From: Lingula anatina
Lineage: Eukaryota > Animalia > Brachiopoda
Assembly: GCA_051362555.1 (NCBI GenBank)
Contig: CM120643.1
Location: 16,744,848-16,808,847, forward strand
Length of the DNA: 64,000 bases
Reading direction: 5' to 3'
Part shown: positions 118 to 42,274 of the stretch, one piece after another
Layout: each line of letters begins with the position of its first letter
Position numbering within the stretch: the stretch's first letter is position 1
Made by a program: the position numbers and the translations under genes
The notes under the pieces: model-generated
What the model saw: only the letters and a program-made list of their open reading frames with translations
What the model was told of the DNA's origin: nothing
The model's database searches: none

Positions 118-8599
<8,482 letters not shown>

Positions 8600-13818: not shown

Positions 13819-16800
13819 ATGGAAGAAGAAGAAGAATATAACAATCAGCCGGAAAAAGAAATATCAGTTACCTGCTCGACACCACCTTTTGACACAAAGT
13901 ATAACCATCGAGTTCCTGAGGGTGGACACCTTGAAGAGAGTTTAGTAAATGAAAGGACAGAAAAAAGAGACCCAGAGGAAGGGGATGATGACAGTTCATT
14001 TTCATTTGAGGACAAAGTGAATACTCGGTCTGTGCATGACAACCAAAATGACAGTGAAAAGATAAAAGATGTTAGGAACAGAATGGGAAATGAGTGTAGG
14101 GATAGCATGGATGGTGATTATACTGCTGATGAAGATGAGGATTGGGAAGGTGATGAAGATGTTCATAAACAGAATGATAAAGATGACAATGAATTAAGTC
14201 AAACAGCCATAAGTAATGAACAAATTTCTGCCCAGGATCCAGTTACACAAGTGCAGGAGGAGGGATGTGCAGCAAATATTCCTAGCAACGGTAGCCTTTA
14301 TCTCAATGACAGTACTGATGGTGCTTGCCTTAGTAACCATGACATGTTGCCTAGCAATGGTGACAATGAAGAATTTTACATGGAAAGTGAAAGTGAACAT
14401 ATAATTCCTCACCAACAAACTGAACAGTTCATTTCTCAGGATAGAAATGAAATTATTTCAGAATCATCAGTGGAAAACAAAGAGGAAAAATATGAAACAG
14501 AGCTCTCTAGTTGCCATGACAACCAAAAGAAAATTTCCACCATGCAACAAAATACTGAAATTTCAACCTCAGGCAATTTTCACAGCATCCACGAAAATCA
14601 CCATGACAATCAAAGCCAGGTTAGCCATGAAAATTACCATGACAACCAAAGTAAGCCATGTCCAGATGAAAGGGATGATGCATGGATCTCAGGATCTGAA
14701 CCTGCAAAATCATTTGACTGTTCTGAAACTTTGCATGAAGAATATTTTGAACTACCTGATAAGAGTAGAGGCACTAAAATGACCCGAATTGACCAACTGG
14801 CATCACCAGAAAGGACCGGCTGTTCACATGATCACCACGGCAGTAAACTGCCCAACATGGAGTTGCTAAAAGAGAAGAGAAAAAAGAGAAAGGCAAGAAA
14901 GCAACTTCTTAAGCAGACTGAAGAATGCCCAGAAATTTGCCAACAAGTGGATGATGTATCTGAAATCAGAAAAAATGAGGACAATTTGAAATTACCAGCT
15001 GGAGGAAATGAAATAGAAAATAGTAAGATACCTGATGCAAATTTTGAGTGTGTAACCCTTCCAGAAAATGATGTCAATCAATCTGTGACAGTGATTACAA
15101 CAACAGAATCAACAGTTGCAATTCCACCAATTGCAGTAACAACATCAACAGCAACAGCAATAACTACAACACTTAATAGTGCTCAACCTGCTGCTGTAAT
15201 CAAGGAAAAAATTGACGTGTTTGCTTATCTCCCCAGTTTACGAGTGCGTAAACCCGTGGATCTACCTCCGGAGGTCCTGGAGGATCCCCTGAAGGATATC
15301 TTGCTCACAATATTTGACAAGGCCGATTTGAATAGTAATGGGAGCTTGAATGCTGCCGAATTAGAGGAGGTAAGTATACAATTACCATAATTTCAATTCA
15401 AACACCTATTATTTTGATAATTAATTTTATGATGAATTTCATATTTCAAACATTGATTCAGTATTTTGAGATATATTTTTTATCCCTTTTCAACATTTTT
15501 TAACTTCTTACCTGAAAGAAATTAATATCTGAATTTAAACCAACCTCTGTTAGTACATTATAAATTTTCAAATTCAATAATTTGGGACTTACAAACAAAA
15601 TATTGTTAGGGATATACAATTTGCTTTATAGGACAAAAAATTACTGCTTTCAATAATTTTACATATAATCTGTTGTTCAAACTAAACACTTTTTGCATGT
15701 TAAGTTGATTGTGATAATCTTACGATGAAGATAAAATTTGTTTGCAGTGACTGGAATGCTGATGTATTAATTCGACAGAAATATTAAAAGAATACTTTTA
15801 TTTATTCAATTTGAGCTTTCCATTATTGATTTAAGTAAAGTTCAATTCAATTTTTATTTCCAAGTATTTTCAGCTGAAAGTCCCTGACTTATTTGTTTTG
15901 AGACTAAATGCTATGAAAGGCATCAAAAGAGATGGTGAATGAAAAAATTATTTAATGCCTATATGTTTTTTTTTGTGCTGTTAGCTGTTGAAATCTCCTA
16001 CCTTAGACATAGATATAAAGTGGGATGATGTAAAGAAGATGACAAGATCACTGGACAGTAAAAAGGTTATGTAATAAAATATGCAATAAAATGATTGCTG
16101 CTGTTGTTGTATACATATTTATTATTAACTTTCCCATATTTGATATATATATATAAGATAAAATGTGGATGTAAGAAGATGCAATATATATATATATAAT
16201 AATTTATGTAGGCAGTCAGTTTGATTATTCAATGCCTAAACTGAAAAATTGTTGAATGGATTAAGTAACTCCTGCAACTTGTCTTTAATAATGCAGAATT
16301 TTTCTCCTTTTTTTTTAGAAGTTCGTATAATTTTAAAGTTCATATCAATTTGTGGCTATTTCAGGAAGGAAACGTCACATTTGAAGATTTCAGACCACTG
16401 GCAGTGGAAGCTATGAAAGTGATCTATGGACGGGACCAGCAAGTGAAGGTGAGAGGTGAACATTGTGATAGGTGTGACGTGGTTGAACACTGCTATTATG
16501 GTTTCAATTGTGTTGGATAATGAAGTGAAGTATTGGAATTTAAAGTGAAGTGTTGTTTAGAGTACAAATTTATTCAAGGAATGAAGGAAAGGTTGCATGA
16601 AAACATGTCATGCTATAAAAATATTTTATGTGCTTAGCTTTTGAAAATGAAATTTAAGATCAAGCACAGAGTTACATAATGTACCAGTATACTGTTGGGG
16701 AGGATTATTGTTTCTAATATAATAAGAAAGTTACATGTACTAGTACTTTGAACACAAATGTTTTTATTAGTTTAATCAGTTTAACAATTTAAGATATTGA

Positions 16801-17221
16801 AAAAAAAAAGGAAAATATTTTAGAAAAATATTCAGAATTTAATTATATTATTAGATACCAGAAGATGTAAATATGATCAAAATATTTATTTATTTTATTC
16901 TGCAATCTTTATTTACCTCCAGAGCCATTGGGTTGAGCTGGACCTGGGAGAACACACCCTGTATTTCAACAGAGTTACAGGAGAAGCCAGGTAATACATG
17001 TACCACCCAGATTTCACACCATTTATGAACTTTTAATTAATAAGCAGGCCTCTATGCTTATTGTATTTTCATTAGACTTTCATATTTCAAAATAAGTCTA
17101 CAGGGATTTATTTTTAAAAATAAAAGTTTTGTAAAATTTTGATTTGATTTGATTTGAAACATCCTAACTGATAATAGATATTAGTTTCCCTTAAACTCAA
17201 TCACTCTGGATAAAACATCTG

Positions 17222-17277
<56 letters not shown>

Positions 17278-20200
17278 TTTGTGTGTGTGTGTTAACCTAA
17301 TAGACTTTATTACATCACACATAACAATAACCATTCTGCATTCTTCGCTACAGCTATATTATCCCTGAGGACTATGTACTGGACCTGCACTTTGCAGATG
17401 ACCTGTTTGCTGATGCTGTACGTGCTGCCCTGGCCAGAGTGGACAGAAGACATACTGGTCAAGTTGGAGCGAAGGATTTCTTCACTGTAAGTATTACAGT
17501 CTACTGTGCTGTATTGTGGATTAAAAGTGTGTTAGGTAAAATTTGACATAAATTAATTGTGTTAACAATTTTCTGCATTTTAATCAGTGGGTATTTTTTA
17601 AAGCATTTTTCTTTTCAAAATGGTTTAATGTCATTAAAAATAAGCAAACTTTTTATCTTTGATTTTTTTCCATTTTTTACTCACAGGTGCTACGCTCCAT
17701 TGCATTCAGTCTCAGACTTACTGATGAAGATCTCAAGGAAATTACAAAGATTTTTGGGTGAGTTTATAATACTTTGTTTTTAAATTACACAATGCCACAC
17801 ACAATATGATGTTATTTAACACAGTGATCTGAACATAAATTAAAAATTAAAATTATATACTGATATTTAGACTAGATTCAATATTTTTATTCAACCCGCC
17901 CTTATAAAAATTCCCTGTATGAATTAGCAAAGGATTTCCTATAGGTTCCTATAGAAATTCCTATAAGATTTCCTATAGGACCCTATAGGAATTTTTGTAA
18001 TGGTCTGAACATAAATTAAAAATCAAAATCATATACTGATATTTAAACCAGATTCATTATTTTTCATTCAACCCGGCCTTATAAAAATTCCCTATATGAA
18101 TTAGCATAGGATTTCCTATAGGTTCCTATAGAAATTCCTATAAGATTTCCTATAGGATCCTATAGGAAATTTTCGTAAGGGGATACACCTAACACATCAC
18201 ACCAGCACACTGTCTCACCTAACACAATGTCACACCAAGCTCAATACCACATCTAACAAACTGTAATTATATAACAATGCAATTACCAGCACACTGTCAC
18301 ACCAAATACAATGTCATACCAACCATATGATTTCAATTTTTTGTAAAACCTAATATCTTTGAATGACCTTTTTTTATCTCTTAATTATATCACAGTGACA
18401 ATAATTTATATCAACAGTTGACACTTTTGATACCTACTCTACATGCAAAATAATTTTTGTTTCAGGTTTTCACCAAATCATTCTTAACTGATTATCTTAA
18501 ATTTTGTTTATTAATTTTTTCTAGCTCAAAGCGAGTCAGAGTCAGTCATGAAGAGTTTATTCCTGTTGCTAAACAACTGATCTGTATGATCTATCGAGCC
18601 CGTGAAGAAGGAGCGGTGAGTTCTTTGGTGTTCTTCTTCAGTCATAACCTTCAACATTAATTGAGCTTGACATATTCAACAGACTACTGATTTTTATTTG
18701 TTTTTCACAGTTTTTCTTTCATTAATAGTATGATTTACAATAACCAATTTTTAAAAGAAATAATTGTAGGTAGCCCTGCAGTTATCATGTAAGCTAGATT
18801 ACATCAGTTGTTCTGCATTGAGAAGAATACCTAAGTTGCCTTACCATACAGTTTTGTTTTAGTAGAGTGACTCTTACTATTATGGTACGTTGTACATTAT
18901 TTAGTAGGAGACTATGCAAAGGCACTTGAGTTACTCTATTAGATTAATTAGTAGGTGGCACAACAGAGGGATTAGGTTTTTTTGTCTAAGGTGAGCTATT
19001 CATAATCAGATGAGCTGCTTAGATGAATCCTACTGAGATAGGTCAAACCTCAATGGAAACCCAACTTTGGTCTGTTTGAGGACTATTTGGGTGTGTGCTG
19101 TGTTATTTATTAGTCAACGTTATGAAGGTAGATATGTATACACTGTTTAAAGTGCACTAGATGACATGGATGATTTATAGAAGGGTAAAATCAGCACAGG
19201 AAGTGTTTTTATAGGGTTTTCTTATTCTTGGCTTATGTTATTATGAATATCCAAGTGTTCCTTTTATCCATTTTAATGCCAGATATTGAACTGCGCACTG
19301 TCAGTATATTGTCTTGATGAAATGATATAAACTGGAAGACACTCATAAAAATATAAAAATGATTTTATCATAATTTATGTTGTGCATTTTTGCACTTAAA
19401 TCTGCCTATGTTTTTATATGTTCATTTCATATTATTTTACAGCTGTGATGCAATAAAATTTACACTATAATTTGCAGTAAACACTTCTGACACCCATTCA
19501 TTTGCTTTTTAACACAGATAAAAAGCTTTGATGCATGTATAACACAGTAACTAAACATTTGGACAATGGGGTATAAAAAGAGATAATTCTAAACTGAATT
19601 TTTTTTCCAAAAAAAAAAAAAAAAAAGTTGAGATCAATTAAAAAAGTTAGTTGCAAGTCTGGCAATTGTAGTATTTTATAGAGACTGCATGTAGCATGAG
19701 GATGTTGGATGATCAGCTCTTGACTAATGGACTTCAAACAACTGCTTCAGAATTACTTTTATCATATTTACTTCGGTTTGAATCTGTTACCAGACAGACA
19801 AACCCCGGGTATTTCACTGATAGAAATGCTCATATTTACTTCAAATGAAACGAACTGAGACCATTTTTGCAGCCAGTTTGTCAAAAATATTGTTGAGCCA
19901 TTGATTTTTCATGTCTGTTGGATAATTCTCTCCCTGGAGAGTTACACAAATGTGTTTGATAATGCAGGGGCTTTGTCGTATTGCAATCGAATACAAACTT
20001 GGCATTTTTGGCTGATATTGTAAGCAGTGACATCTTAAAGGACTGTTTCATCTACTAAATCATGGTGGTTAAGTGAGGCTTCCTTCAATCCAAAACTCTA
20101 GATTTACACATTTTGACATTCATAACACTTTTGATTACGGTTAACAAATAAAGCTACTGAAAAGAAAAATTACTTCAAGATTAAAATACCATCTAAACAC

Positions 20201-23200
20201 ATTTTAAAGGTCTCAGTCTTCAAGCTGCCCTCCCCCTCTGTGATACCAATTGGTTGACTTTTTATCCTTGAAAAAACTAAACTGACAATAAGTTTTAGAC
20301 CAGAAAAGAGCAGATGCATTTGAATGTATTTACTCACAAAAGTATCAGTGCCCTCCAAAAAGCTCCAAAAAGAACATCATTCTCTCAAGATTGGCTGGCA
20401 GTGAACAGTGAGAGAAATGTGGAGACATTCAGTAGGATAGCAGACAGTCAAGTTCTAAAAGAAGAATAGCACCTAAACAGTAAGTGGAAGTGACTAAGAA
20501 ACAAAATTGGGAAGCTGCCACTTTGAAGTGTGGTGTATAATTAATAGGTGATCTACATAAAGATGATCTTATTGCCTTTTAGAAAAATAACTACTGGCTA
20601 AGCATTTTTTTCTAGAAATAATGCTGACAATATAATTTTGATTTGATACATTAGTTTATTTCTTTAAGAAGAAATGAAGGGATGTATGAGTTTGTTTAAC
20701 TTTGACGTGCATTAATAGTCATAAATCCAAAGTATATTTAACTGTTCTTGCATGAATGTTGTTCAGAATAATGTACCTGGACCTAGGCTACTTGAACTTT
20801 ACTAATTTGTTTATTTATTTATTTATTATTTGCAAACTTCAAGTACAATTAGTTTCATGAAAAAAAAAGTGAACAATGCTTGCTACCTTAAAAAATTCTC
20901 TAATCTTCAAGACCAGTCCCCTAGGAGAAACAATCTAACAGAGTACATATGTTTATCCCCTCAGGGACAACATGCTGCCCAAACAATTAAATACATCATT
21001 TTCCAGTTGACTGGGCTATGCATCAGAACTCATGCAGTTAAAAGTTCATTCTTAACTAAGATCTAATATACGTTTATTAGATCTTAGTTCTTATCAAGTT
21101 GTACATATAAGTTTCTGAGATTTAGAAGACAAAATACATGTGACAATTATGTTATTTCAAAATATTTTTTGGCTTAGTCAATACTTCTATCAAGTAGAAT
21201 GTTTGTGGAAAGTTACTGTGTCACCTTGAATCAGTAAAAAAGATAATAATATATTAAGCCTACTACCTGATCATAAGTTAAGTTAGAGGATAAGTAACAA
21301 AAAGGAAAATATGAAGAAAAACCATATACCTATAAGGGATATTTTTCTGCTTTTTTCCATGTGATACAACCATTGAAAATTAAAAGATAAAGCATGTGGG
21401 AAGCAGATGTACTTTAATTCCATATTGACATGTCTGGTGATTTCTTTAAGGTTTCGACTGATCTACATTGTATAACTAATCATATCTGAATTGCACACTG
21501 GATGATTACTAACCAGAAAAAAGACCATTAACCTCTTAAGTGAAGCAAAGGAAGACAAAAATATGACAGCTATTTCTTTTTCTGCTGTCAAACAAGAAAG
21601 AGAGGACAACTAGATGCTGGTACAATCAACTTGATATTAACCCATTTGTGTAAACACAGATTCACTTCAATAGGATAAACTTGGCTCTGTCAACAAAACC
21701 AGATAATATATTTTCGTATCAGTTTTCTCTTGATTGCAAGTCAATTAGTGGATTGGCATTTACTTAACTGAGTGCAGCTTGCTGTTTTGGTTTTGGACAA
21801 TAAGTTTGTCACAATGATGAACTGTTGGAGACGTCAGAGATGTCAGTGACATGTGGGAGATGGGTCATTGCGCCAAGCATTTTAACTTATAACCATGAGA
21901 AGGACATCTGGAAGGAAAAACTTCATATTAATTTTCTGAAACAGATATTTTTACAGATTTTTTAAAAACCAGCATTATATGTTGATGTACTAGTATTGTA
22001 CATGTAAGTTGATTGATTATGAATGATGAACACAAATTGTTTTTTAAGACTGGCACCGAAAAACATTGAAGGTATTGAATTGTTTTTAAGTGCAAAAATA
22101 AGAAAATTTAAGAGCAGGAACTTAGAGAAACTTATGAATTGCAGTTAATGTGAAGACAATAATAGCTGTTGGAGAAATGTTTTTTCTCTCTTCTAGAATG
22201 ACTGGTGCATGATGTCCAGCCCGAGAGCAGGAAGTTTTTGGTTCAACAAGAAAACTGGACAGGCCAAGAAAACACCCCCTGCCCATGTTATACGTGCTCA
22301 ACAACAACAGCTTGAAGAGAGGTAAGAGAGTGTGTGTGTGTGTGTGTGAGTGTGTGTGTGCATGCATGTGTTGGTGTACTTGTGTGTGACATTATACATG
22401 CTCAACCACAGCAGCTAGAAGAAACTCTAGCAAGAGAGAGAGAGTGTGTGTGTGTGTGTGTGTGTGTGCACGCGCGCGCATGTGTTTGTGTGTGTGTTTC
22501 TTTGTAAGCAGTAATTACCAAATGTAAGTAATTTTAAATAGTTGAAGGTTACCAATGAAAACATTCAGAAGCCAGGGAAACTGTGTACACAGATAAGAGA
22601 TTCATCATCTAAAAATATGTAGGAATGGTGAAAAAGTTGACATCTCAATGACATCAGCAAACAGGGCTGTCAAAAAGTGCTTGTCCCTTGAGCAGCGAGA
22701 GTGGACAGTTTATTGATCTTTGCCTTTTAGGTGCGCCTTCAACACTACAGAATTTTAGCTAAGTAAACAACCTAGAATTATTTAAAACTCAGTTTTACAG
22801 CAATGAGGTATTATATTATTATCAGAATATATTTAAAGAAGCATAATTTACTGCATTTAGTTTTATATTAAACTTGGGAGGAAAAGATACTTCAATTTGG
22901 GATTAGTTCAAGATTTATGGACAACAGTGCAGGTACATGGTCACACATTTTCAAACTTTGTTGAGGATATCTTGAGGACCTTATAGTCAATTGCGTCAAC
23001 AGGGCATAAAGTGACAGTAAATGGCCAACTCTTTGTACAGCTTCACGGGATTATACTGAGTATTTACGGGGATCAAAGAGAGATCAAGTGGCATTGCATG
23101 GCCCTGTCAACAGAGCACTTCACCCAGTATAGGACGCTGACTTTTCCTGGGTAACCTGACACAGTGGAGAGATATGTTTACCAGAGAGGCTGAACCCTGG

Positions 23201-26200
23201 GGTGGGGAGGGAGGGGTGGGTGTGGTTTACCAGAGAGGCTGAACCCTGGGGTGGGGAGGGAGGGGTGGGTGTGGTTTACCAGAGAGGCTGAACCCTGGGG
23301 TGGGGGGGGAGGGGTGGGTGTGGTTTACCAGAGAGGCTGAACCCTGGGGTGGGGAGGGAGGGGTGGGTGTGGTTTACCAGAGAGGCTGAACCCTGGGGTG
23401 GGGAAGGAGGGGTGGTTGTGGTTTACCAGAGAGGCTGAACCCAAGAATAATAATTAAGGGAGGAAGGGAGGGGTCATGGTTGGATCCAGAGCTATTTTTT
23501 GACAGTCTTCCAAATGATCTTTGTTGATCCATCCTCCATTTTTGACCGTCTTCCAACAGAAAAAATTAGATAATCGTAAACTTGAAAATCTGACCATCTT
23601 CTGGAAGACCCAGAAGACTGCCTCAATCGGCCAGTAGGGGTGGAACTTGTAATCATAGGTCAGAGTGGGGCTCAGTACAAAAAAATTTAGAAGATCTCAA
23701 CATGTTTAATTTCAATACTGTATTTTGTAATGAAAAAATAAAATATATATAAATATTGTTTACAAACTCACTTTAATATAGTTTGCTTTTATTAGACCAA
23801 AAAAGTCTGAAAATGATAAAAATGTCTAAAAGGTCAACCTAGATCTATATCAATTCTACATTATTTACAAAGGGGCAATGCAGAGGACCTAGCTCAAAGT
23901 GGTGTGTCCCCCCTGGCATGAAAGTGTTCATTGGCCGATTAAAAAGCTTAGTTGCTCGGTATTACGAGGTCACATTCAACAGGGAAAGTCAAACATACAC
24001 ATTTGTTACTGAGGGTGCTAAGATGAATAGCGTTTAGGACATTTAATATTGAAACGATATTTTTATTGACCTAAAACTTAAGGATCAAGACTTGTGACCA
24101 GGGAATTTAGAAGAATGGACATGGCTGTTTGAAAAAAAAATTAGTAGAAAGGGATTTTTTATAACACTTCATCTTCAAGCAATGGTGAACTTCTGGTGGA
24201 ATTTGTATTTTGCTGAACAAGTCATCAGGCACACTGGATTGAAATTATGAAGATGCAAGATTATTTTACTACAAATTGAAAATATTAATTGAATGATGAC
24301 AGTGAAATTGTTGAGGAAGAGGGAATGTATCTGAACCTTGATGACTCTCACTAATAAGGACACACACAATAGGGCCTGCACGAGTACATGCAAAGGCAGA
24401 TAAATGCAGTTTTATTGAATAAATGGTAATATGTCTCAACATAGAACTAGTCTACGTGACATTGTACGACTGTCCCCAAGAGGTGGTGGGTCAGTCCACA
24501 CTGGGGTCAGTGGAACAGTCAGTAAATGGAATATTAATGGCAGAAGGACAACATCTTTGACCAATACTGTCCAGAAGATTATAAACAAAAAGAGGGAGGA
24601 AGAAAGGTGATATTTTATCAATTATTGTAAAATTTCAGCAGCTCTGTTTCAAATTATTTGCTATAAAAACTTAACTTTTTTTTTATAATTTCCATCAGCA
24701 GATGGTAAGGACCAAATGTTTGATGGAGGACTATTACACATTGCATTCTGAAACCTTTATGGAAAATTTTTGCTTCACAAGTGCAAATGTCCCTATTTTC
24801 AGTTATTGAATGATCCGAAAAAAAAAAAAAAAAAAAAAGGCATGTTACATTTGTGTTAATAAAATTTGGGTGTTTTGACTGACTGTTTTAATTGAACTTA
24901 ACAGTATGTGAAATTTGATTTAATTTAGAAAAATCATAATCATTGATTGTGATTTTGTTTTCATCTAGCCCTGTCTTAAGGAGGAAAACTATTTGAAAAT
25001 GTGAAGCTGGCAGTGAAAAATAATTATTTTCCAAAATTGCCTCTGCTGTTAACATCTCTCTTTTTGTTTGTTACATGTAAACCAGTGGTATGGAAAGATG
25101 AAGACAAAATTTTGTGGGTTTCAAACAGTTTTAGGATAAAAAAATATGACGAAATTAAAAGAGTAGAATAATGCCAGTAATTAGCATGAAATTTTAAATA
25201 GCATGTGGTTTGTTTTCTTTTGTCACTATCACTGTCACTATCATCATTCTCTACCTGTACAGCATACATTTTCATTTCAGCTTCATATAAAAATCTAGTG
25301 TTCGTTTTATATGCTGTTGCACTGTCAGAAATGTTCATAGCATTTCTGTACACATGGATACATTTTTTATTTATAAATATTTTCGATAACGTGTGTGTGT
25401 GTACTCAATTGAAATGCCACAATAATGATTCAAAATAGTTATTATATTTTAATAATTCTAAATATGTTCATTAGCTACAGATGCATGCCTTTATTAAAAT
25501 GAGAGAGCACATATAAAGTACAAAATTAAGTATTTGTTTAATTTCAGGGAGTTGAATACTTGCAGTGTCAATATACATCAGAACCGCTGTTTAATCAGAT
25601 AATTACTAATTGATTAATTTATGTTTTACAGAGAAAAAGAGAGACAGTTTCTTGCTGCCAAACTAGAGGAACTAAAAGAATTTACAGAAAAATATGAAAA
25701 GGAGAAGAAGGACAGAGAGGTAAGGGTTTCAATTTCATATTAAATTTTTTCATATTGGGTGGATATAAAAATATGTCACATTTTTATTTTATTTTATTTT
25801 CTCTAACTTTATCCTCTACAATTTAATTTTACCAGATATTAATACGCCTTGAAGTTTTTTATGACACAAAAATTCAGACTCAGTTGCTTAATATATAAAA
25901 TCTATGAAGCAGTCGATACAAGAATGACAGTAAAAAAGTGTCAAAAAATGCACAATGAAAATCAATCCTTCAGTAGACCTTTTATAGGTAAAAACACAGG
26001 GTTGTGATACCAAGTCTAAGTTGAGAATACTACAGTATACTATAGTTAGCAACACTGCACAGTGCAGTGTGCTAGTTGTGACGAGCACAATCTCAACTCA
26101 CAACAATGTCAACTACACCATCGCTGTTAAAATAATAAACACCAAAAGAAAACAAAGAAATTCACCTGCAACATTTATTTGTAGCATTTTGCACACTTGA

Positions 26201-32200: not shown

Positions 32201-35200
32201 CACACAAGTGTCTGCGTCATTAATATAGTCTGTGGTGGATGGACTAACAGTAATCTTATTGACAAAGTCATGGCATTCCTTCAGGGTTTGCTGGGTTCTT
32301 ATTGTACTCACAAACACTACCAGAAAGAGTGGCCAGAAATTTGATGAGTTACATTTGTAAATGGATCAAACCCCGAGCCATGCAGTTGTTAGGCTCTGTC
32401 CTATTAACTTGATTTTTTTTAAACTTGGCTATGATTATATTTGTGTCTAAAGAAAACCATTGCTTGATTAATTTCATCTATCTAACTCATCACTTACTTT
32501 GAGGAATATATTTTTCAATTTTTTTTAAACTATTGTTAGATTGAATAATTTTTGAAAATGATAAAAAGTATGTAAGTTTATAAAGTAACATTTACCTATT
32601 ATTGGCTATGCTACAGAAATTATTGGAATGTCAAATAATTGAATAAAATAAATAAAAGAAAAATCTTTTAACTTTCCCTTAATTGCCAGACTATAAGCTA
32701 CAGTAACCAAAAGAAAAAAAAAACTTAAGAATGGCCCCCAAAGTTCTGCAGCATGCCACTTGCCGGACATCTGAGTTTGTGACACAGATTACCACCATGG
32801 TGATAATGTTGGTTTATCTCCTGGCCAGCCAACAGACTGGTGATATCATTGCAAGCTCTGTGTATATTAAATTCAGATTGACATTATCTTGTCATTCTGT
32901 GGGACTTCTTGTCATTCCATGTCAAAGACTTGTCCATTATGTAACGGTTCATGTTTTGACCCATGTGTGTCTATGATAATCAATGACAGATCAAGAGATG
33001 GGCGCAGTGACTCACTGCCCCCCCCCCTCCCCAACTTTGGAAGCACCCCCTTCTTACTTGGAAGAAATAAGTATTCAGACAACAGTTAGCAATAGTGTAT
33101 GGTATTTTTTTCTGTGGTGCATACTCAAAATAATAAGTGAAGGAGAGAAAGACATAAGTAATTGTCTTTGTACCCCATAAGCTAAAAATGATAAAAATCA
33201 AGAAATAGAAAATTTTATAAGATATGGTGGGGAAGTTATCAAGAGGATGTATGAGGTTTATCTTGTAATAGACAGTGAAGAGTAATGAACAGCAGCAAAC
33301 TTATGTGAATATCTGACCTACAATTTTTTTATATTGATGTTGCTATCTTTTGGCATATATATTTTTTTCCTGCCCTGTACTCTCGTTCTTTTATATGCCA
33401 TTATTATTTACCTATTATTTTTTCCTTATATCTCATTTATTTCTTCATGTTGTCTCTTTTTTATTTTTGGATAACTTCTTTTCTCTCTGTATTTTCCCCA
33501 CCATAGGAAGAAATAGATATTTAGATTAAAGAGAGGACAAAACAAAACTGAATTAGCAGTTGTCCTTTTGTTTGAATTAAAACCAGTAAGATAGTCATGG
33601 TGAAAAAATCAAGTTAAATGCATGTAAGCGTAAAACAAACAAACAAAGAAACAAACAAAAAATCAAGACATAACAAGTCTTTTAAAATGATGGAGAGAAA
33701 AAAGGATGAAAATTCGACACATCACACCAGTACCTGTTCCAAATCCTAACCTTTAGGCCACTCCACTGGATAACCAACACTTCTCTTTGCTCTTTGAGTC
33801 AGTGAGCTACTGCGTTGATTTAATCAATACAGATAACATGCAGCAACACTCCAGATTATGCTGCAGTAATAACAAGATTACTGGAATGACTTGACGAGCA
33901 AACTTGCAGGCAAACTTATAACTTAGCATCACTTAGTGCTTACTTTAAATGTCTAACCAACAGAAGCACAGGGCTGTTGATGGATTTTTTATGTGGTTTA
34001 TTTTACTCCTGGATTGTGTTCTGGTGAAGTTACATTGAACAACATTTGGTAACAATGGCACAAGCTGAATATTTAAACTATAAAAAGGTATGTTTAAGAG
34101 AGAGAGAGAGAGAGAGAAAGAGAGATAATGCATGAGATGTTACGGAAAAAAATTACACCTGATACATGAATATGTGATTTAAATGTGTGTATGTGGGTTT
34201 CTGCATGTACATTTATGTAATACATGTATAATCAAATTACTTATGAAGCCACTTTTTATATGCAAGCACTGCCAGATAATTCTCATGAATTAAAAAAAAG
34301 CAGGTTCAGTAAAAATTCTTCTAGCAATAATATTTTACTTAAAAGGTTTAGGTTCATGGTTACCTTTATATGTTACCTCCTAGGTTTTTATGATCATTTT
34401 TCTTTTACAGTAATTGGTTGCAGACATGCCATGAAATATTTTTTTTAAATCTCTTACCATAAAATCAGTGTAACAAAGTAAACATGAGACTGAATATATA
34501 TTGGATCTTATTGTGACTTGGGTGGTATCCATCTTATACATGAAGGTACTGTCGACTGCATTTTGTATTAAAAAAAAAAAAAAGCCCTACTTTTCCTTGT
34601 GGGAAAGGTGATTTTCTAATGTAACGGAATGTGATATCTGATGGAATCACATGTACTACTGTGTGTTTAATGAAAACTCACTTCAATGGCTTTGAAGGAG
34701 CAAAAGTGCCTTCTGCATTGTATCTGAATTAAAATTAGGTAACTTCAAACACCAGAAATCCTGTGGTATTCTTTGAATGGTTTAATATTATTCTTGTTTA
34801 ACAGTGAGCTTATCTTATGCAAAACTGTTCAAAATTAATATTAATGTAAAGGAAGGATATTTCTAGGGCCAGTGCTTGCTTTTTGTTTTTAATTTAATTC
34901 TATTTAATATTGTCACATTTTTAGAAATAATAAAAAAAATAAATCCTTATAAGTTTAGAATGCTGTATTAACACTCCCAAAATCAGTGCATAACTGTAAC
35001 ATCTTATTATATTGTGTAAAAGATTAGCCTATATTTCAACATTTTGTATATTGTCATATTGCATATTTCATAATTATTATATTTTTGTGTCATATGCACC
35101 TCCTATAACATACATATTATCATATCATATCACATGCATGTATTAACATTAATACGGAAGAATAGATTTCGTATCCAATAAGATTATTTTGTTTCTACAA

Positions 35201-38200
35201 AATGTACAGTATAATAGCATTATTCAATATGATAACTTTATATAATGCAATAACATTTATCAAATAGTAGAACATCTCACAGTATTTATTGTAATTGTTC
35301 CATTCTTTCCAGGCCTTGGAAACTCGACACAGTAACCTGCAAGTGAAATACGAGGCTGCATGTCTGGAGCTGCAGAAGACACAAGGACTATTGGAGAAAT
35401 TACGAACAGAAAACAAGAAGAAAGCAGAACACATTGAGGGTTTACAGAAAGAAGTCACTTTTATGGCTGATAGGGTTAAGGTTCTGGACCAAAAAGGTGT
35501 GAGCAAAGAATGAAAATATTTTTTCACTGGGTAAAGAACTGTCATGTTACTCTGGGTACTGAAGATGTGTTGTATTTCTTGTTGTTTAAATTAAGAAAAG
35601 AAAATAAAGATTCAAATGATTTAAACTAAATGGTATTATATAATATTTTTAATGATGGTGAGATGCTTCAGATACATAATCATTAAATGAGTTGAATTCA
35701 AAGAGAAACAATTCTTTTAATGATCTTTCAACACGTTAATGTCTCTAACACTACAATATCTTTGTTTTGTCTGTTGTTTTCAAACAAAAAACTTCATGTA
35801 TGCCACTTAATCATAACCCATTTTTATTTACAGCTTTGGATTTGGAAAGAGCTGAAATCACAGTAGAACAATTGAAAAGAACACTGGAATCCTACCAGTA
35901 AGAATTTTTTATATTAAATTTTGATATCACATCTTTGTGAACTAAAGTTCCTCAAGCTAAAGGTCTTCATAATAAATAATTATAGTGTCGAGGGTGAACA
36001 TTATATTCATTGTTTTTATTCTGAAAATCTGTCAGTAAAGTTTGTATTCAACAAATCTTAATGGAAATTTCACCTGATTCAAGAAATCAATACTTCCAGA
36101 AAATATAGGATCTGGAGGAAATATTGATTGCATTACAGCACACAGCTTGAACCTGCTGAGCTGCTTAATCTCATGAGATTTCATGTACTCAAAATCTTGT
36201 TTTATTTGCATTGTTTTCATTACTCCCTTATAATGCATTTGATAATGGCTTATTCTCTTAAATCTGAGAATAAAACCACTCTGCTGTATGAAGTATGTGG
36301 AGGATTTTTACTCTACAAGGTGTTATTCTTTGCAAAATATTGCAATAATACTATGCAGTGCTTTTTCCGTCAATGCCCTTCTCCACACTGAAGATCAACT
36401 TATAAAAAATACCACTACTGATGCATGTTTCTCAGAATCTTGATTGAATTCATTCAATGGGCTAAGCACACTGAAACTGAATAGAAGTAGGAACGGTTGG
36501 TTTTTCTAGTAGAAGGTCTTTTATCAAACTCATATAGGAAAAAGAACTAAAGAAACTCTGTAGGGAGTACGATGATGTTGAATATTCCTCATTGATTAGA
36601 TCTAGTGACAAGACCAAAAATCACTCCAGTCTGAGAGTACAAAGGAATTCAAACATGTTCCTTTTATTTCCTGCACCTTAATTGGTTCTAAAAATAATAT
36701 TTTCATTTCTGTGATTAACAAAAGTTATTGGCTTTCTGCAAAGAATGAAGGCATCAAGTGCAGCTTAGATTTACTTTTAGATTTTCAAATTTTAATCAAT
36801 ACTTTTTAGAATTTAATACAGTTAATGTTACAAAAAGGAGTAACAATAAAATATTATAGATCTAAGGTTATTTTGAAATACAAAAATAGTCTCCAAGTCT
36901 TATAAATTAAATAATATTTTATTATTTCAGTAACTACAAAAAATGTGTTGTATTTATTCCCACTGAGCCATGGCAGAATTGAACATTTATAAATTTTTAA
37001 TCCTATTAGAAGGAGTTAAAATATTACTTGATTTTTTTTCTTGCAGAAAGCAAAACCGAGACAAAGAGTCAGAGCTAAAGGAAACCCGCCAGTGTCTGGA
37101 AGATACAGGGAAAAAACTGTCCGTAAGTTATTCATCTAATAACAAAAAACATTTAATATATGAAGAATTTCTGTACAAGCCAGAACAAGGCAAGACAAAA
37201 TTTTAATGGTTATGCAACCGTTTGTCAACTTTTAGGCTCTCTTATTTATTTAATAATTTGAATGATTTTTTTAATAATTATATTTAACTTCATGCAGTCA
37301 CTTCTAACACAATGTCCTCATACAAAATATTTTCCCAAAATTGTAAGATTTCACAGGAAACTGAAAATTATTCCTGGCCATAAAAAGCTACAAGGCAGAA
37401 TATGAATATCAGCCTTCTGCTATGAGAAAAAAAAAATGTTGTACTCGTACAAGGGATTGGGATAAAGAAAAAAAGAGTGGGCATAAGACAGTATTAAAAA
37501 AATGATATCTATTGAACAGGTTGCACATACTCAGATAGAAGATTTGGAAGAGAAGGCATCAGACCTGAAACAACAGGTGAGGGAGGAACTGAGGAGAAAT
37601 GAAAAACTGGAGCAGGTGAGTAACTGCATGTTTAACTTAAGGCATCATATGCTTAGAGTTGTCAGATGCCACAGACTTTTTAAAATTGCATTGGTTGTGT
37701 ACAATATGTCATGCTTTTTAACAAAAGATTAAAACAATACATGAAAATACATGAACATAATGAGTTTAACTGTATCTAACACTTTAATGGTATAATCAAT
37801 CTCACATAGGATGGCAGTGTGTTTACTGTCTACATTTTTGTTTGTATGCTAGCAGTTGATAAATATTTAAAATGCCCTTTAGGATGTTTCATTCATATTA
37901 GCTTCCTCATGACTGTCTTTTATCTTAATGGTTCATTATAAGCCTAACTGAATGTAATATTATTACTTTTACAAATACTGTACAGCAATTCCCAAGATTA
38001 CCTTAAAGTTTACGTCTGTTCAGAATGCACATAATCTTATATTTATTTTTATCAAGCAAATTTTGTACAATTACACTAAGCCCAATTTCAATTAATATGC
38101 ACCTAATGTTCAACGAATGATGACTAAAAATACAAATTTGAATTGAACATGTTTTTATTTCTAAAAAACTTATCTGTATATTTCAGGATATAGAGGGCAT

Positions 38201-41200
38201 TCCTCACTTAAAAGAGAAAATAGAAGAGGCTGAAGCAGCAGCTGTGAATTTTCAGAAAGAACTGAGAGAAAAAGAATTTCTTCTGCAGCAGGCCAGGAAG
38301 AGCAGTCGGGAGTATGGTGAAAAGGCTAAGGTGGGGCTCAGGATTTCTAGACTAATGCAGGGTGCAAATAACTTAATACCGTCTTCAGCCCCCTACAGCA
38401 AGAATTATTATTTCCTGGAAGTTTCAAATAAACAACTTTTAATTGATAAAAATTAGAAATTAATATCTTGAAATTTTAATTTTCTGAATAATAAAGAAAA
38501 AATTTCCAGGAAAATTGTATAAAATATTTGAAGCTTGAAAAATCAAAGCACACAATAGAGACACACTGTGGTAAAATGGAGTTTACTTGAAAATGGCTGG
38601 CTGAGTCAATTAAGCCCTTGTTCTTAATTTTAAAAGTACTAATGTGAAATTTGAGAATTCATATATTATGAATTTTAAAAAGCTACAAATTTTAATTCAC
38701 TTTTACAATGCATTGCATGTATTGTTACATTATTATTCCAATTTTGCCAATACAAATGATAATAAAGCTTAATTGGGATTAGTATGGAACATTATGATGT
38801 TTTAAAGCATATATTTGAAGCTGACTGGGTGTTGTTTTAATATTATTCAGGCTTTAGAAAAAGAAGTTTCAGAGATGAACAAAATCCAGGAAGAGCTTCA
38901 TGTGGCCAGGTGCGAGACCCTCTCCTTGAAACAACTGATTGTAGGGAAAGACTCCCTGGTGATACAGTTGACCCAGGCACTGGAGTTTGCTAAGGTGGGA
39001 ATATCGAAGAACCATAGGTTCTAATAAGTTACTTGGCCACAGAAGTTTTTACTCCCTTTCACTAGTTCTTCACAAGTTTTCTTTCTACTGTTCAATTAAG
39101 TTTGAACTAATTAATAACTTATTTTAATTTTTAAAAAATTGGCCATGCCAAATGCATACAGGTTTCCTTTTAAATTACTAACTTACAAAATAACCTAAGT
39201 TCATCAATCTTTTATTTCTGTCTCAAAAATGGCTGACGTTTCTATTTCCATTTCGTAGAACATGCTTCAGGAACTGCATGGCACAGGTTGTCAGATTTCT
39301 CCTAAAATCCAAGAATTGCTTGACAAGGCAAGTCTGCTCCAGCTGGCAACTTATCCCCAGGGGACGCCTGTGCTCAAGACCCTCCAAGATGCCTCAGAGA
39401 GTATACGGTATGCTATTTTCTCCATATATTTTTTACTGGCCAATATTCAGTCCCACCGGCAAATCTTTTTTGAATAATGTATAGTTTTCTTTGTTTTTTT
39501 CAAACTGTATTTAAGCCCCCCCCCAAAAAAAAAGGGAAAAAAATTAATATATACAGTTTCAATTCTTTAATCGAAAATTTTTAAAAATCAGACATCAAAA
39601 GTACCACCAATTTGTGCAGATGGATGCTCTCTGAAAGATTTTCTCCTGAATGTTTCATATGTCTCATTCTAATCCAACACAAAAATCCTAATGTTTAAAA
39701 ATTGCAAGGATTTGCAGTGTAGATTTGTTTATAATCTATGACAGTGGTTTTCACCCCCAGATCTCCAAGCCCCAGTGTAGAGCCCTGGGCACAGACAGTA
39801 CAATGGGACGGCACGCTGTCTGCTAACAGAAGAACCAACTCGGCTCCCTCTAGTGGGAAACAGGCAAGTGTCAGCACAAACTGTTATGAAAATATTCCAT
39901 TGGCCAAATTTTACCTCAGCTCTTCTGACTCTGTCTGATTCACTTGGCAGATGATGCAAACTTAGAAACAGATCCTGAGATTGCATTTGCTTGTTTTCCC
40001 TGGCTGTGATATATAGTGTTTCTGCTTTTCAAGCTTTATGTTGTGGTGAAACTAGGATGTCATAATTTTTTTTTTAATCATAAAATCTTGCATTATATCA
40101 ATTGACTGTGCAAAATTAATAGCTGCCATGCACGAAATATAAGTGATGGCTTCAAATTCTGATAGAATTTCTCATTCCATTACTATTTTTAATGTATTTT
40201 TCAGAATTCAAGAGTACAATTAGATGTCAGAAGACCTCCCTTCTCAGCAAGCTCAAGTGATACCACGACAAGACAAGCCAGTGCAAAACTCAATCAAAAA
40301 CAGAATGGCCTATTTTTGAAGCGTTTATTGGTTGATACAGAATCAACTGATGGTAAAATGAGTAATACATTGCCAGCACATCCAGTCAGGCCTAAAACTG
40401 CTGTAGTAAAACCAACAATCCATTCAAACTTTCATTCTAATAATTCGACATTATTCACAAATAATGGCAGAAAAGGATCAGTGGATTTTGCTGATAATTG
40501 GACTAGCAGTAGTAACAGTACTAGTACAGCTTCGTCTTCAGAGGGATATAATCCCCGAAAACCATCACTCTCTCCTTCACACTGCAAGTCCAAGGCAGTA
40601 CCCCCTACAAAGCAGGAACTTAAGATGGAGAGAGAGGCAATAAAGGCAGCATTTGCCAGGATGTCCGTGTATGAGAAAGACAGTTTGGTGTCAAAATTTG
40701 TGAACACTGGTGACAGGGTTCTAGTCAGGCTTGGAGCAGCTAAGAAGTTAAAATCCAAAGGTAACAAGAAATTTTTAGTTTTTCACAATATTTTAGTTCC
40801 TCTCTCATAGTACTATACTTATTTATAAAATAAGCTTATTCGAGGAATTATTTATAATGTTTTAGTTTTGTGATCTCTGTCATGACATATACTTAATCAT
40901 AGAAATTTTGTGTCTTCAACACTGTTGTCTTTTAAAGTGTGCTACTACCTTTAATAAAGTGTAATTTGAGCAAACAGATTTTGATAAGATTTTTTTTTCA
41001 ACAGGAACTGCACCAAAAGAAATTCTTCACAGTGGTATAGTGAAGTTCATTGGCCATGTTGACCGCGAGTATGCAGATCAGAAATTGTATGCTGGTATAC
41101 GATTGGATGAAGCAGGTAATGGATTACGCACCAATCAAACTAGATTGGAGATGAAAGTTCACACACATATCTTCATGGCCGTTCTATATTATGGTTACGA

Positions 41201-41994
41201 CTTCATTATCATTTATTATTAATTATTCTTTAAAAATTGAAGTTTTTTTCCTTATTTTACTTTTACTGTCATTATAAAATGAAAATGTCACCTTAAATTT
41301 AGGACAAAAAAAGTCTCTGTTCATACAATGGTAAATTTCATTTTTCAAACACTTTTCAGTGGGAGACACAGATGGTTTGTTCAAAGGGAAAAGATACTTC
41401 TATGTCCCTGCCAACCATGGCAAGCTGGTACGACTACTCAATGTGGTCTCTGTGCTGAATACCAAGGTGGGTTTCTATCTTTTTCACCAGTCCATCTTTT
41501 TTTCTTTTTTCTAAACCCAAGTTTAATACTTTGCTTTAGCATTTCTACACATTCATCAAATCAATTTCTGTCAATTTTAAACCAACTTGAAGGTAATATC
41601 TATGTAAAAATGAATATTAACTTAAAACAAATCTACAGGGAAAAAATCACCAAAATAAAGAGTTCAAACAGCCCGAAATTTTGTAGTCTATTTTAATTTC
41701 TGCTGGTAGTAGTCCTAAAACTGTGACAGATAAAATAGTTTAAGATAATGTAAAAAGGTTCAACTTCAGTTCTCTGAATTTCAGAGTAGTGCAATTAGGT
41801 TCCCTCAGAATATAAATCATGTGTTCATCTTGTTTCAGATGTCCAGTTACAAGAAGGTAGAGGACAGCGTGTATGAATATATGGAACAGAACAAGGGATC
41901 ACTCCATTTAGACTTGTACCACTACCCCTCAGTTCCAGTCAGACCCCCCTCTCCCCACACCTCCTCCAATGACAGTGCTAACCAAGGAACATGA
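13819..41994 (+). CDS. Uncharacterised ~1393-aa protein: acidic low-complexity N-terminus, 2x(EF-hand pair + WW-like), coiled coil, Ser-rich linker, C-terminal CAP-Gly. Coding exons: 13819-15369, 15985-16065, 16365-16448, 16923-16990, 17354-17486, 17687-17757, 18525-18615, 22197-22321, 25632-25719, 35313-35496, 35834-35897, 37047-37122, 37520-37615, 38187-38330, 38851-38994, 39259-39407, 39761-39863, 40205-40760, 41005-41115, 41360-41466, 41839-41994
   Basis: All 21 exons have AG acceptors and GT donors (one GC), with compatible phases summing to 4182 nt. EF loops DLNSNGSLNAAE and DSKKEGNVTFED, plus degenerate DRRHTGQVGAKD. WW-like HWVELDLGEHTLYFNRVTGEASYIIP and DWCMMSSPRAGSFWFNKKTGQAKKTPP. 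Heptad-rich exons 25632-38994. CAP-Gly: GDRVLV...GIVKFIGHVD...YAGIRLDEAVGDTDGLFKGKRYF...HGKLVRL. The join across the 9.6-kb intron (25720-35312) is the least certain part. Confidence 0.8.
17220..17292 (+). repeat. (TG)n microsatellite
   Basis: Direct reading. Confidence 0.95.
17825..18181 (+). repeat. 176-bp tandem duplication, each copy ending in a ~105-bp mini-MITE full of CCTATAGG palindromes
   Basis: TG(A/G)TCTGAACATAAATTAAAA at 17825 and 18001; TIR-like CCCTTATAAAAATTCCC ... GGAAATTTTCGTAAGGG. Confidence 0.8.
23176..23442 (+). repeat. G-rich minisatellite, 49-bp unit x ~5.4
   Basis: GTTTACCAGAGAGGCTGAACCCTGGGGTGGGGAGGGAGGGGTGGGTGTG starting at 23176, 23225, 23274, 23323, 23372 and 23421 (partial). 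Confidence 0.97.
23475..23636 (-). mobile_element. MITE (CAGGGGCGGAT-type TIR family), decayed inverted copy of the 42275-42430 element
   Basis: Internal sequence is the reverse complement of 42275-42430 (GAAGAC..GTCAGATTTTCAAGTTTAC..GGTCAAAAATGGAGGA); flanked by 5-bp TSD GGGGT (23470-23474 / 23637-23641). Confidence 0.8.
27423..27449 (+). CDS. Candidate alternative first coding exon (MDSGEFYIQ) of the EF/WW/CAP-Gly gene
   Basis: AAATGG start, open to a consensus CAG|GTGAGT donor, phase 0, compatible with the exon at 35313. Confidence 0.4.
28385..31964 (+). CDS. Candidate alternative N-terminal exons 28385-28548 and 31910-31964 of the EF/WW/CAP-Gly gene
   Basis: ATG-initiated 164-nt open frame ending TG|GTGAGT (phase 2); 55-nt exon after TTGTAG enters in phase 2 and exits in phase 0 at AAT|GTAAGT, in frame with 35313. 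Confidence 0.5.
29188..31852 (+). mobile_element. Composite (two-headed) non-autonomous Helentron-type element (HINE; pearl/CvA-like) with 159-bp core repeats
   Basis: T-run, then perfect hairpin TATGTACAGACACA-ga-TGTGTCTGTACATA (29192-29221); (GCCGAT)n microsatellite; 159-161-bp repeats (29371/29530/29691 and 30952/31111/31270); ~401-bp duplication (29751/30152); second head at 30797-30820; 3' subTIR TGTCTGTACAT (31820-31830) plus GACAGC-ttt-GCTGCC hairpin and TTGTT. Confidence 0.88.
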
Positions 41995-42274
41995 ATTAAC
42001 AAATGACGTACAATAGACATCACATCAACTGAGTACTTGCCTATAACTTTAGTTAATTACCTCCTATCAACCCCAGTGCTAACCAAGGAACATGAATTAA
42101 CAAATGACGTACAGTAGACATCACATCAACTGAGTACTCGCCAATAACTTAAGTTAATAACCCCCTATCAACCCCAGTGCTAACCAAGGAACATGAATTA
42201 ACAAATGATGTACAGTAGACATCACATCAACTGAGTACTCACCTTTTAATTAAAATTACCCCCTTGCAACCCAT
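41973..42274 (+). repeat. 101-bp tandem repeat x3 overlapping the stop codon of the CAP-Gly gene
   Basis: CAGTGCTAACCAAGGAACATGAATTAACAAATGA at 41973, 42074 and 42175. Confidence 0.95.

Follow-up and report, generated by a model that had tools for sequence, protein, structure and literature searches.

A Lingula anatina gene, split in public annotation, that likely links paired EF-hands to a CAP-Gly domain with an altered GKNDG motif

Among centriole appendage proteins, CEP164 combines a WW domain with a coiled coil, and CEP350 a coiled coil with a CAP-Gly domain. Dystrophin-family proteins contain spectrin repeats and a WW-EF-EF-ZZ module, the CAP-Gly domain of TBCB is C-terminal, and that of CYLD reportedly has a ubiquitin-binding role, according to the title of a cited study. 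Ninein, as described in excerpts of the literature, carries two EF-hand pairs and a coiled coil. In KIF13B, the CAP-Gly domain sits in the tail domain (bioRxiv 10.1101/2022.08.09.503328). Radial spoke protein 7 (RSP7) has EF-hands that bind Ca2+ (excerpt of PMC3494852); it docks via an RIIa D/D domain, according to excerpts of PMC3494852 and PMC8339350, the latter of which lists it among proteins of non-metazoan taxa. In CAP-Gly domains, the K and N of the GKNDG motif have been tied to EEY/F binding and microtubule tracking in work employing K-to-E, N-to-D double mutants (excerpt of PMC9062740), and the EEY/F interaction depends on the GKNDG loop (excerpt of PMC13406575). CAP-Gly domains whose motif is changed can have other partners, as in CYLD, where they bind peptides and other proteins (excerpt of PMC13623971).

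We analysed a window of 64,000 nucleotides of Lingula anatina DNA, in which a spliced open reading frame of 21 exons (positions 13819-41994; plus strand, as are all features below) encodes 1393 aa with zero internal stops. AG was present at 20/20 acceptors, and the donors of the 20 introns comprised 19 GT and 1 GC. This stop-free 21-exon model, proposed by a sequence-only reading of the window, is borne out, as each of the 20 junction peptides is also contained (≤1 mismatch) in one or more of three Lingula anatina proteins from NCBI, here P0001, P0002 and P0003. Several features had been overlooked by that reading: an in-frame cassette exon of 54 codons (24445-24606; in P0003, skipped in P0002), whose inclusion gives 1447 aa, still stop-free; a low-complexity stretch rich in Ser and Thr (aa ~1001-1240), which separates the rod from the CAP-Gly domain; and a tail of ~50 aa C-terminal to the latter. 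Compared with the NCBI haplotype, the window differed at 3/931 residues outside the acidic region of exon 1 versus 12/462 inside it, a conservation contrast that is confounded by a second low-complexity region with 0/185 differences.

NCBI lists the locus as two genes, LOC106175714 and LOC106175708, and no public protein spanning exons 1-21 was found. P0003 (XP_013413291.1) comprises exons 1-13 and P0001 exons 10-21, with an identical 140-aa overlap. The disputed join between exon 9 (25632-25719) and exon 10 (35313-35496), both encoding coiled coil, is present in one of the three models, P0003, so that the earlier claim of a single gene across 25719->35313 is now better supported. The exon-9 donor, which starts a 9.6-kb intron (9593 bases, the longest of the locus), scored 10.3 with a leave-one-out matrix, among the stronger of 21 donors. 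The last exon of P0003 maps to 32285-32344, upstream of exon 10 in the window, and a duplicated segment would thus be needed in the older NCBI scaffold. The NCBI split probably arose because exons 10-13, which are common to P0003 and P0001 and single-copy in the window, occur twice in that scaffold; as a result, none of the three models has EF-hands and CAP-Gly together.

It is distinctly unlikely that the locus instead holds two transcription units, one encoding the EF/WW-like part followed by a short rod, the other a rod/CAP-Gly protein starting at 34055, with the four-part chain absent or a minor isoform. The separate NCBI genes and the length of intron 9 would fit such an arrangement, as would the P0001 start exon of 11 codons (34055-34087): it carries an ATG, its donor scores 8.9, no in-frame acceptor lies upstream of it, and it represents an internal start or else an artefact of prediction. 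No exon joint was seen in RNA reads, which were too few to show one, with trace depth on exons 8 (run X7) and 9 only, in one of four runs. However, both NCBI models contain the single-copy exons 10-13, the location of the last P0003 exon calls for the duplication, the alternative end of P0002 relies on a weak acceptor (score 1.0), and the rod stays in frame across the join. We consider it likely that the locus makes one 1393-aa protein, which public annotation splits into pieces.

Exon 1 (13819-15369; aa 1-517), 97.5% identical to P0003 1-518, encodes a low-complexity N-terminal region (aa 1-~462), acidic as previously claimed (22% D+E versus 10% K+R over aa 1-470), and the first EF-hand. EF pair 1 continues through exon 2 (15985-16065) and exon 3 (16365-16448), the latter encoding EF2 and its exit helix. 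In the second module, a linker and EF3 are encoded by exon 5 (17354-17486), EF pair 2 continues in exon 6 (17687-17757), and exon 7 (18525-18615) encodes EF4 and its exit helix. The EF-hand pairs were confirmed by Pfam EF-hand_7 (PF13499), which matched in two stretches (37.3 bits versus a cut-off of 30), and the predicted model of module 2 superposed on a lobe of calmodulin (Z 9.3, rmsd 3.0 Å, 81 residues) and of centrin (Z 9.2, rmsd 2.5 Å, 80 residues). Local alignment of the two modules scored 97, a value reached by 0 of 2000 shuffles (maximum 54), with identity at 30 of the 116 aligned positions; the window contained no further copy. The modules are thus duplicated, as had been proposed, but their introns match only in part, two of the four agreeing in position and phase.

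The loop of EF1 (aa 503-514; 15325-15360) is the sole canonical Ca2+ loop (D, N, N, G6, N, E12, with D, N, N at X, Y, Z and Glu at -Z) and the sole match to a PROSITE-type Ca2+-loop pattern. The degenerate loops of EF2 and EF3 and the lost loop of EF4 have no canonical ligands: Y is K, R and K in loops 2-4, respectively, loop 4 has neither the X Asp nor G6, and -Z is D in loops 2 and 3, a position where E alone serves according to an excerpt of PMC7655957. The Ca2+ sensing suggested by the sequence-only reading would therefore depend on one site, three of the four loops having no canonical ligands. Among 33 solved-structure matches, the best was Chlamydomonas RSP7 (PDB 7jtk_M; E 2.5e-7), followed by centrins (from 3.3e-4); this top rank came from summed repeats, the best single stretch scoring 21.5 bits versus 21.0 for centrin-2. 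By eye, the run EEFIPV was common to module 2 and an RSP7 repeat.

Each EF pair is followed by a strand pattern in a low-confidence model (pLDDT about 40-55). WW-like element 1 is encoded by exon 4 (16923-16990; W575, with P599 at its end in exon 5) and element 2 by exon 8 (22197-22321; W696-P721), which also starts the rod. Both elements exhibited W, Y/W at N-2 and P at N+11, while the second Trp of the polyproline groove was lost, being Tyr in module 1 and Lys in module 2. The WW profile (PF00397) had no Pfam match in P0003 at E ≤ 10 or in exons 4 and 8 at E ≤ 1, in searches whose HMMER filters drop weak matches; Foldseek returned KIBRA chains at E 0.09-0.13, with no aligned range given. The WW-like designation thus keeps its residue pattern and a model at pLDDT 48, but neither a Pfam match nor the ligand-binding second Trp.

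The predicted coiled coil continues through exons 9 and 10, exon 11 (35834-35897), exon 12 (37047-37122), exon 13 (37520-37615, the final exon common to P0003 and P0001), exon 14 (38187-38330, following a Gly/Pro break at aa 908-910) and exon 15 (38851-38994), where it ends (aa ~1000). The predicted rod of about 274 aa has one Pro and was modelled as a nearly continuous helix (over P0001 aa 2-254, block pLDDT 53-93), in agreement with the ~270 aa first claimed; it is slightly acidic (61 D+E versus 54 K+R). Directly after it, exon 16 (39259-39407) opens with MLQEL (aa 1002-1006), which has Met where the Spindly consensus JxxE-phi needs Leu or Ile. This near-match is at chance level: the relaxed motif occurred 4 times in aa 727-1050 versus a shuffled mean of 3.0, and 34.5% of 2000 shuffles reached 4. 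The Ser/Thr-rich linker includes exon 17 (39761-39863, with the GC donor) and part of exon 18 (40205-40760), which also encodes two short predicted helices, CAP-Gly strand 1 and a Lys-rich loop.

The CAP-Gly core is encoded by exons 19 (41005-41115) and 20 (41360-41466), and exon 21 (41839-41994) encodes a helix, a Pro/Ser-rich tail and the stop. The domain (PF01302) matched with 49.6 bits versus a cut-off of 26.5 (E 3.7e-13); it had been described as terminal, which holds apart from the tail that follows it. Its sequence was nearest to TBCB, CLIP-115/170 and p150Glued (E 1e-4 to 6e-3), with CYLD at E 0.12-1.5, and an Arg near the domain end was retained in the alignment to TBCB. GDTDG (41362-41376) replaces GKNDG, the loop that marks the EEY/F-reading proteins CLIP-170, p150Glued and KIF13B, so that K becomes D and N becomes T. 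Binding of tubulin or EB tails, a step of the earlier proposal, can therefore not be assumed and is weakened; from its sequence, this domain is unlikely to bind EEY/F tails. The CAP-Gly region (aa 1246-1342) contains 18 K+R versus 9 D+E, while its core, taken by itself, is close to neutral (10 K+R versus 8 D+E). No SxIP-type motif was found past aa 460.

Our preferred reading, held tentatively and at somewhat less than even chances, is a rod-shaped, Ca2+-tunable linker that would act on microtubule structures of cilia or centrioles, its two EF-hand-pair modules and the altered CAP-Gly lying at opposite ends. The ~274-aa helix would dimerise as a parallel coiled coil with a length of about 40 nm, given the rise of about 0.15 nm per residue in coiled coils. 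The cleft of each EF pair may hold an amphipathic helix of a partner, with Ca2+ input via EF1 in module 1 and none in module 2; the WW-like strands would form small, packed accessory domains that do not read polyproline; and the basic CAP-Gly region would hold the microtubule lattice or another partner and would not read the tyrosinated EEY/F tail. The setting could be a cilium, a flagellum or a basal body. The ciliary leaning of the earlier reading gains a lead from RSP7 as best solved-structure match, at a single-stretch score about equal to that of centrin.

The main rival, in our judgement rather improbable, is an activating adaptor of cytoplasmic dynein of the EF-hand class (FIP3, ninein, CRACR2a, Rab45, KASH5). 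In such an adaptor the LIC1 helix would sit in the grip of an EF pair, with the rod lying along dynactin, MLQEL serving as Spindly motif and the CAP-Gly end binding cargo or providing a tether to the track. The layout of EF pairs, long coiled coil, short motif and variable C-terminus agrees with excerpts of PMC7655957 and bioRxiv 10.64898/2026.04.25.720804, and excerpts also describe degenerate loops in FIP3, ninein and KASH5, like three of the four here, besides the two EF pairs of ninein. The length of the rod and the MLQEL immediately following it fit as well, but the Met of this motif, its chance-level frequency and the only slightly acidic charge of the rod argue against dynein activation, and no chain named FIP3, ninein, CRACR2a, Rab45 or KASH5 was among the 33 solved-structure matches. 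A scaffold with no microtubule role, whose CAP-Gly would bind a non-tubulin partner as that of CYLD does and whose rod would tie this partner to the EF/WW-like head, is unlikely: both GKNDG residues tied to tail binding are altered and the core is nearly neutral, yet the domain lies nearer to TBCB, CLIP-115/170 and p150Glued than to CYLD, and the closest matches of the EF pairs are proteins of cilia and centrioles. The route taken by the sequence-only reading, a plus-end tracker like CLIP-170 or p150Glued that reads EEY/F tails of tyrosinated tubulin or EB under a Ca2+-sensing head, appears very unlikely. It would account for the Pfam-passing CAP-Gly domain, its nearest solved relatives and the retained Arg, but not for the replacement of both residues needed for tracking and EEY/F binding, in a loop on which the interaction depends, nor for the missing SxIP-type motif.

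We found no relative outside Lingula, in searches of limited reach, and conservation can thus not indicate which features matter; within the same reach, no characterised orthologue turned up. Speculatively, and with little probability, the protein could belong to an unrecognised family of adaptors that activate dynein or of linkers in cilia, and would be its first member seen. RSP7-type EF pairs, each capped by a WW-like element, would then lie at one end of the 40-nm rod, opposite a CAP-Gly domain with altered specificity; the protein would be Ca2+-gated, with its own tyrosination-blind tether, and split annotation would have masked it from domain-architecture searches. It would add a class of CAP-Gly proteins coupled to an EF-hand head. 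The Lys-Asn pair whose mutation is used in cell biology to eliminate tail binding is here replaced naturally, which offers a ready test of CAP-Gly roles without GKNDG. As a dynein activator, the protein would combine a built-in tether with a Ca2+ input in one adaptor; as a ciliary protein, it would show RSP7-type EF arrays put to new use in an animal, with no RIIa anchor. These statements concern one species, a predicted transcript model and a function that is predicted and inferred only; the locus is also a concrete case in which split annotation leaves a domain architecture missing from public proteins.

Compared with known systems, the likeness to RSP7 consists of tandem EF-hand pairs of the same length and a Phe-x-Pro pattern in the second hand's exit helix, and is limited to the EF pairs; neither the rod nor the CAP-Gly nor the WW-like strands aligned. 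An RIIa domain was absent from the six Pfam families matched by P0003 at E ≤ 10 and the two matched by P0001 at E ≤ 0.1, and the way RSP7 is anchored can therefore not be transferred to this protein. The EF-hand dynein adaptors, NINL included, share mostly degenerate EF pair(s), a coiled coil of >200 aa and a variable C-terminus; however, no sequence kinship was seen, and excerpts of the literature mention neither WW-like strands nor CAP-Gly for them. CLIP-170/115 and p150Glued share coiled coil and CAP-Gly, and KIF13B a C-terminal CAP-Gly, but similarity to these, TBCB, CEP350 and CYLD is confined to the ~60-aa domain, which has GDTDG here, and the Lingula protein carries EF and WW-like modules at the opposite end. 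Pfam scans returned no motor, ubiquitin-like, USP or zinc-knuckle domains. In the dystrophin family WW likewise adjoins EF-hands, but here an EF pair precedes the WW-like element, twice; this reversed order and the missing Pfam matches to spectrin-repeat and ZZ domains set the protein apart from that family. Ninein, CEP164 and CEP350 each have a counterpart of one Lingula end module on a long coiled coil, a resemblance of design only, the sole direct score being that of the CEP350 CAP-Gly (E 1.3). The four-part architecture was not found in print; it looks like known parts newly arranged within one gene rather than a multi-part system.

The 21-exon gene model proposed in the sequence-only reading, running from 13819 to 41994, gave a protein of 1393 residues with zero internal stops. 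All 20 acceptors were AG, and the donors comprised 19 GT and 1 GC. Moreover, each of the 20 junction peptides was found in at least one NCBI protein model, the junctions of these models being independent predictions, not proven transcripts. A polypyrimidine AG resembling a strong acceptor was observed at 13690-13701, about 120 bases 5' of the ATG and with an in-frame stop in between, which suggests the presence of an unlocated non-coding exon upstream. The N-terminal region (residues 1-470) was acidic, with 22% D+E and 10% K+R; a chi-conotoxin Pfam row in this region (E 0.14-0.53) was weak and was taken as chance.

Three Lingula anatina models, all labelled 'uncharacterized', match parts of the gene: P0001 (XP_013413286.1, LOC106175708), which spans exons 10-21; P0002 (XP_013416403.1), a partial model of 264 aa located on a different scaffold from P0001; and P0003 (XP_013413291.1, LOC106175714), with 977 aa, on a contig equal in length to that of P0001. 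The disputed join of exon 9 to exon 10 (25719 to 35313), between the EF-hand/WW-like half and the coiled-coil/CAP-Gly half, is made by P0003, which continues to exon 13. P0001 and P0003 overlap by 140 identical residues, yet exons 10-13 are single-copy in the window. The terminal exons of P0003 (32285-32344, upstream of exon 10) and P0002 (26311-26364) have weak acceptors (3.0 and 1.0 in the splice matrix, respectively) and are probably prediction patches, and the first exon of P0001, of 11 codons, is located at 34055-34087. The simplest account would be that the older scaffold has two copies of the segment between about 32.3 and 37.6 kb, whether by misassembly or by real duplication, and that the gene predictor split the gene there. 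On this account, the split would be the reason that EF-hands and CAP-Gly occur together in none of the three public proteins. P0001 and P0002 fall in one 90% cluster despite having no mutual overlap, and this cluster has a third member; a bridging protein would account for the common cluster, which is only a hint. Finally, a 54-codon cassette exon (24445-24606), whose reading frame is open in the window, is included in P0003 and skipped by P0002.

Several repeats were observed in and around the gene. Intron 9 contains a duplicated block of about 950 bp (29203-31727) with 160-bp and 401-bp tandem units, which could explain the assembly trouble at this locus; a 264-codon frame inside it (30617-31408) is a chance frame. 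The gene ends within a tandem repeat of 101-bp units (41973-42240), the first of which holds its last codons and the stop. Satellites were found at 2838-4553 (146 bp, 11.8 copies), 23176-23442 (49 bp, 5.4 copies), and 62339-62735 (28 bp, 14 copies), and a dispersed repeat of about 150 bp was present twice, in opposite orientations and with 83% identity (23484-23632 and 42279-42421). The upstream neighbor, at 6681-7998 (+), is a class I/II aminotransferase according to Pfam, presumably similar to mitochondrial aspartate aminotransferase. The downstream gene, at 43708-47530 (-), we take to resemble mitochondrial ribosomal protein L3; no ribosomal Pfam match was found in the four fragments tested. 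C-type lectin exons (Pfam Lectin_C) were located at 51506-52775 (-), and the same lectin gene may include a frame of 219 codons at 56583-57239 (-), for which Pfam gave no match.

Four of the nine raw-read RNA runs listed under the species label (6-25% of each run) were aligned to 22100-28600, which holds exons 8 and 9, exon 10 lying beyond. In one of them, run X7, the exon-8 bin had a mean depth of 0.71 and the exon-9 bin one of 0.84, and the adjoining bins were empty; this coverage, about 154 and 182 aligned bases, respectively, amounts to one or two fragments. The exon-8 bin was empty in the remaining three runs, and in none of the four was a splice joint within this interval supported by the three reads required. 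The trace RNA in run X7 fits low, spliced expression and proves nothing on the exon 9-10 join. The repeat copy at 23484-23632 draws hundreds of reads that extend into unrelated sequence, and is therefore common in other transcripts.

The two modules, each an EF-hand pair followed by a WW-like element, aligned with a score of 97, which none of 2000 shuffles equaled (top shuffle, 54), indicating that they arose by tandem duplication. In the alignment, 30 out of 116 residues were identical, and a profile built from both modules detected no third copy in the window. The introns, earlier described as occupying matching positions, matched exactly in two cases out of four, both in phase 0 (one 14 codons past the first loop Asp and one directly before the residue three positions ahead of the Trp); the other two did not match.

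The EF-hands were confirmed by P0003, which scored above the Pfam EF-hand_7 cut-off (37.3 bits versus 30). In a single-sequence structure model (mean pLDDT 47.6), each module consisted of four helices and then a meander of strands, and the model of module 2 superposed on a calmodulin lobe (Z 9.3, rmsd 3.0 Å) and a centrin lobe (Z 9.2, 2.5 Å). Among 33 matches to solved structures, radial spoke protein 7 (RSP7) of Chlamydomonas was the best (E 2.5e-7), followed by centrins (from 3.3e-4); the lead of RSP7 reflects several repeats, its top single stretch (21.5 bits) being about level with centrin-2 (21.0). Module 2 and an RSP7 repeat have EEFIPV in common, as compared by eye. An ESM Atlas search with P0002 retrieved generic EF-hand clusters only (scores up to 0.84), exons 3, 4, 5, and 8 searched singly against solved structures gave nothing relevant, and Foldseek with the module model returned nothing at E ≤ 0.001. 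The proposed Ca2+ sensing would rest on loop 1, the only loop with canonical ligands: in loops 2 and 3, Y is occupied by a basic residue and -Z by Asp, and the start of loop 4 is missing. According to the part of PMC7655957 consulted, Glu alone can serve at -Z.

The name 'WW-like' is fair for the third element of each module. No Pfam WW match was found in P0003 at E ≤ 10, and the second Trp is replaced by Tyr in module 1 and Lys in module 2. Both elements retain the Trp, an aromatic at Asn-2, and a Pro at Asn+11, which we take to be the core of the WW fold. At low confidence, the model gives module 1 three strands, and module 2 a pair of long strands with a short one. Foldseek listed three KIBRA structures (E 0.09-0.13), as a lead only; match lists from structure comparison were filled by EF-hand proteins, so that the WW-like parts were barely probed. 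Polyproline binding by these elements is doubtful.

In the predicted coiled-coil rod, residues 727-1000 were modeled as a nearly unbroken helix with one Pro, six Gly, and 61 acidic versus 54 basic residues. A two-copy prediction of this rod (P0001 aa 12-275) scored 0.28 against a mark of 0.32, and NCBIfam gave generic coiled-coil matches only, far under the cut-off. The CAP-Gly domain was also recovered (49.6 bits; pLDDT 30-45 in the single-sequence model of P0001), with TBCB, CLIP-115/170, and p150Glued as nearest relatives; a specific relationship to CYLD was dropped after sequence comparison, these three being nearer. The main correction to the sequence-only reading concerns binding to tubulin or EB tails: GDTDG stands where these relatives have GKNDG, and the replacement of Lys and Asn makes reading of such tails unlikely. 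In the parts of these sources consulted, this Lys and Asn are described as required for EEY/F binding and tracking (PMC9062740), and the loop as needed for the EEY/F interaction (PMC13406575). The wider CAP-Gly region is basic (18 basic versus 9 acidic residues), but the core is not (10 versus 8).

In a comparison with the NCBI haplotype, the acidic region of exon 1 showed 12 differences in 462 residues, and the remainder of the protein showed 3 in 931. With all low-complexity parts pooled, the counts were 13 of 675 versus 2 of 718 in the rest (Fisher p 0.003). Because the second low-complexity region was free of differences, this contrast may be due in part to haplotype history. Searches for relatives outside Lingula returned none among three candidates scored for exon 5 against longer proteins, none among 163 for exon-1 aa 445-517 (proteins of 284-905 aa), and one among 1982 for P0002 aa 1-215 (proteins of 463-2000 aa), which was the Lingula model. 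In phmmer, 60 aa of exon 18 matched only the Lingula model P0001 among 1.84 billion representatives; ESM Atlas gave no usable match for exon 18, and none of 422 and 356 stretches in metagenome contigs were confirmed as relatives. As all these searches used fragments or word indices, they do not prove that the gene is an orphan; it may be lineage-restricted or fast-evolving.

We tentatively favor a rod that serves as a linker on microtubule structures of the cilium or centriole, every functional step of which we infer. The EF clefts would grip partner helices, with EF1 as a possible point of Ca2+ input; at the C-terminus, the basic CAP-Gly region would hold a lattice or a partner, leaving EEY/F unread. 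The main rival, about half as probable, is a dynein adaptor of the EF-hand class. The layout agrees with descriptions in the consulted parts of PMC7655957, bioRxiv 10.64898/2026.04.25.720804, and PMC10071310, and the motif MLQEL comes right after the rod; however, MLQEL departs from the JxxE-phi consensus at J, motifs of this type occur at chance frequency in the protein, and no dynein adaptor was present among the sequence matches. A scaffold with no microtubule role seems somewhat less likely again, closely followed by two transcription units. A canonical plus-end tracker, given the altered GKNDG position, is the least probable of these readings.

The gene is real and, within the literature covered, undescribed; it was seen in one species and has an inferred function. 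Its architecture and accessions were not found by title or listing, and proteome tables in supplements could contain these accessions by different names. RSP7, as presented in the consulted parts of two sources, is a radial-spoke protein that is anchored through RIIa and has EF-hands that bind Ca2+ (PMC3494852), and it is assigned to taxa outside the Metazoa (PMC8339350); Pfam found no RIIa domain in our protein. Indeed, the protein differs from RSP7, from the EEY/F-reading CAP-Gly proteins, and from the dystrophin family by one defining feature of each, and would be in kind a coiled-coil cytoskeletal linker with modular ends.
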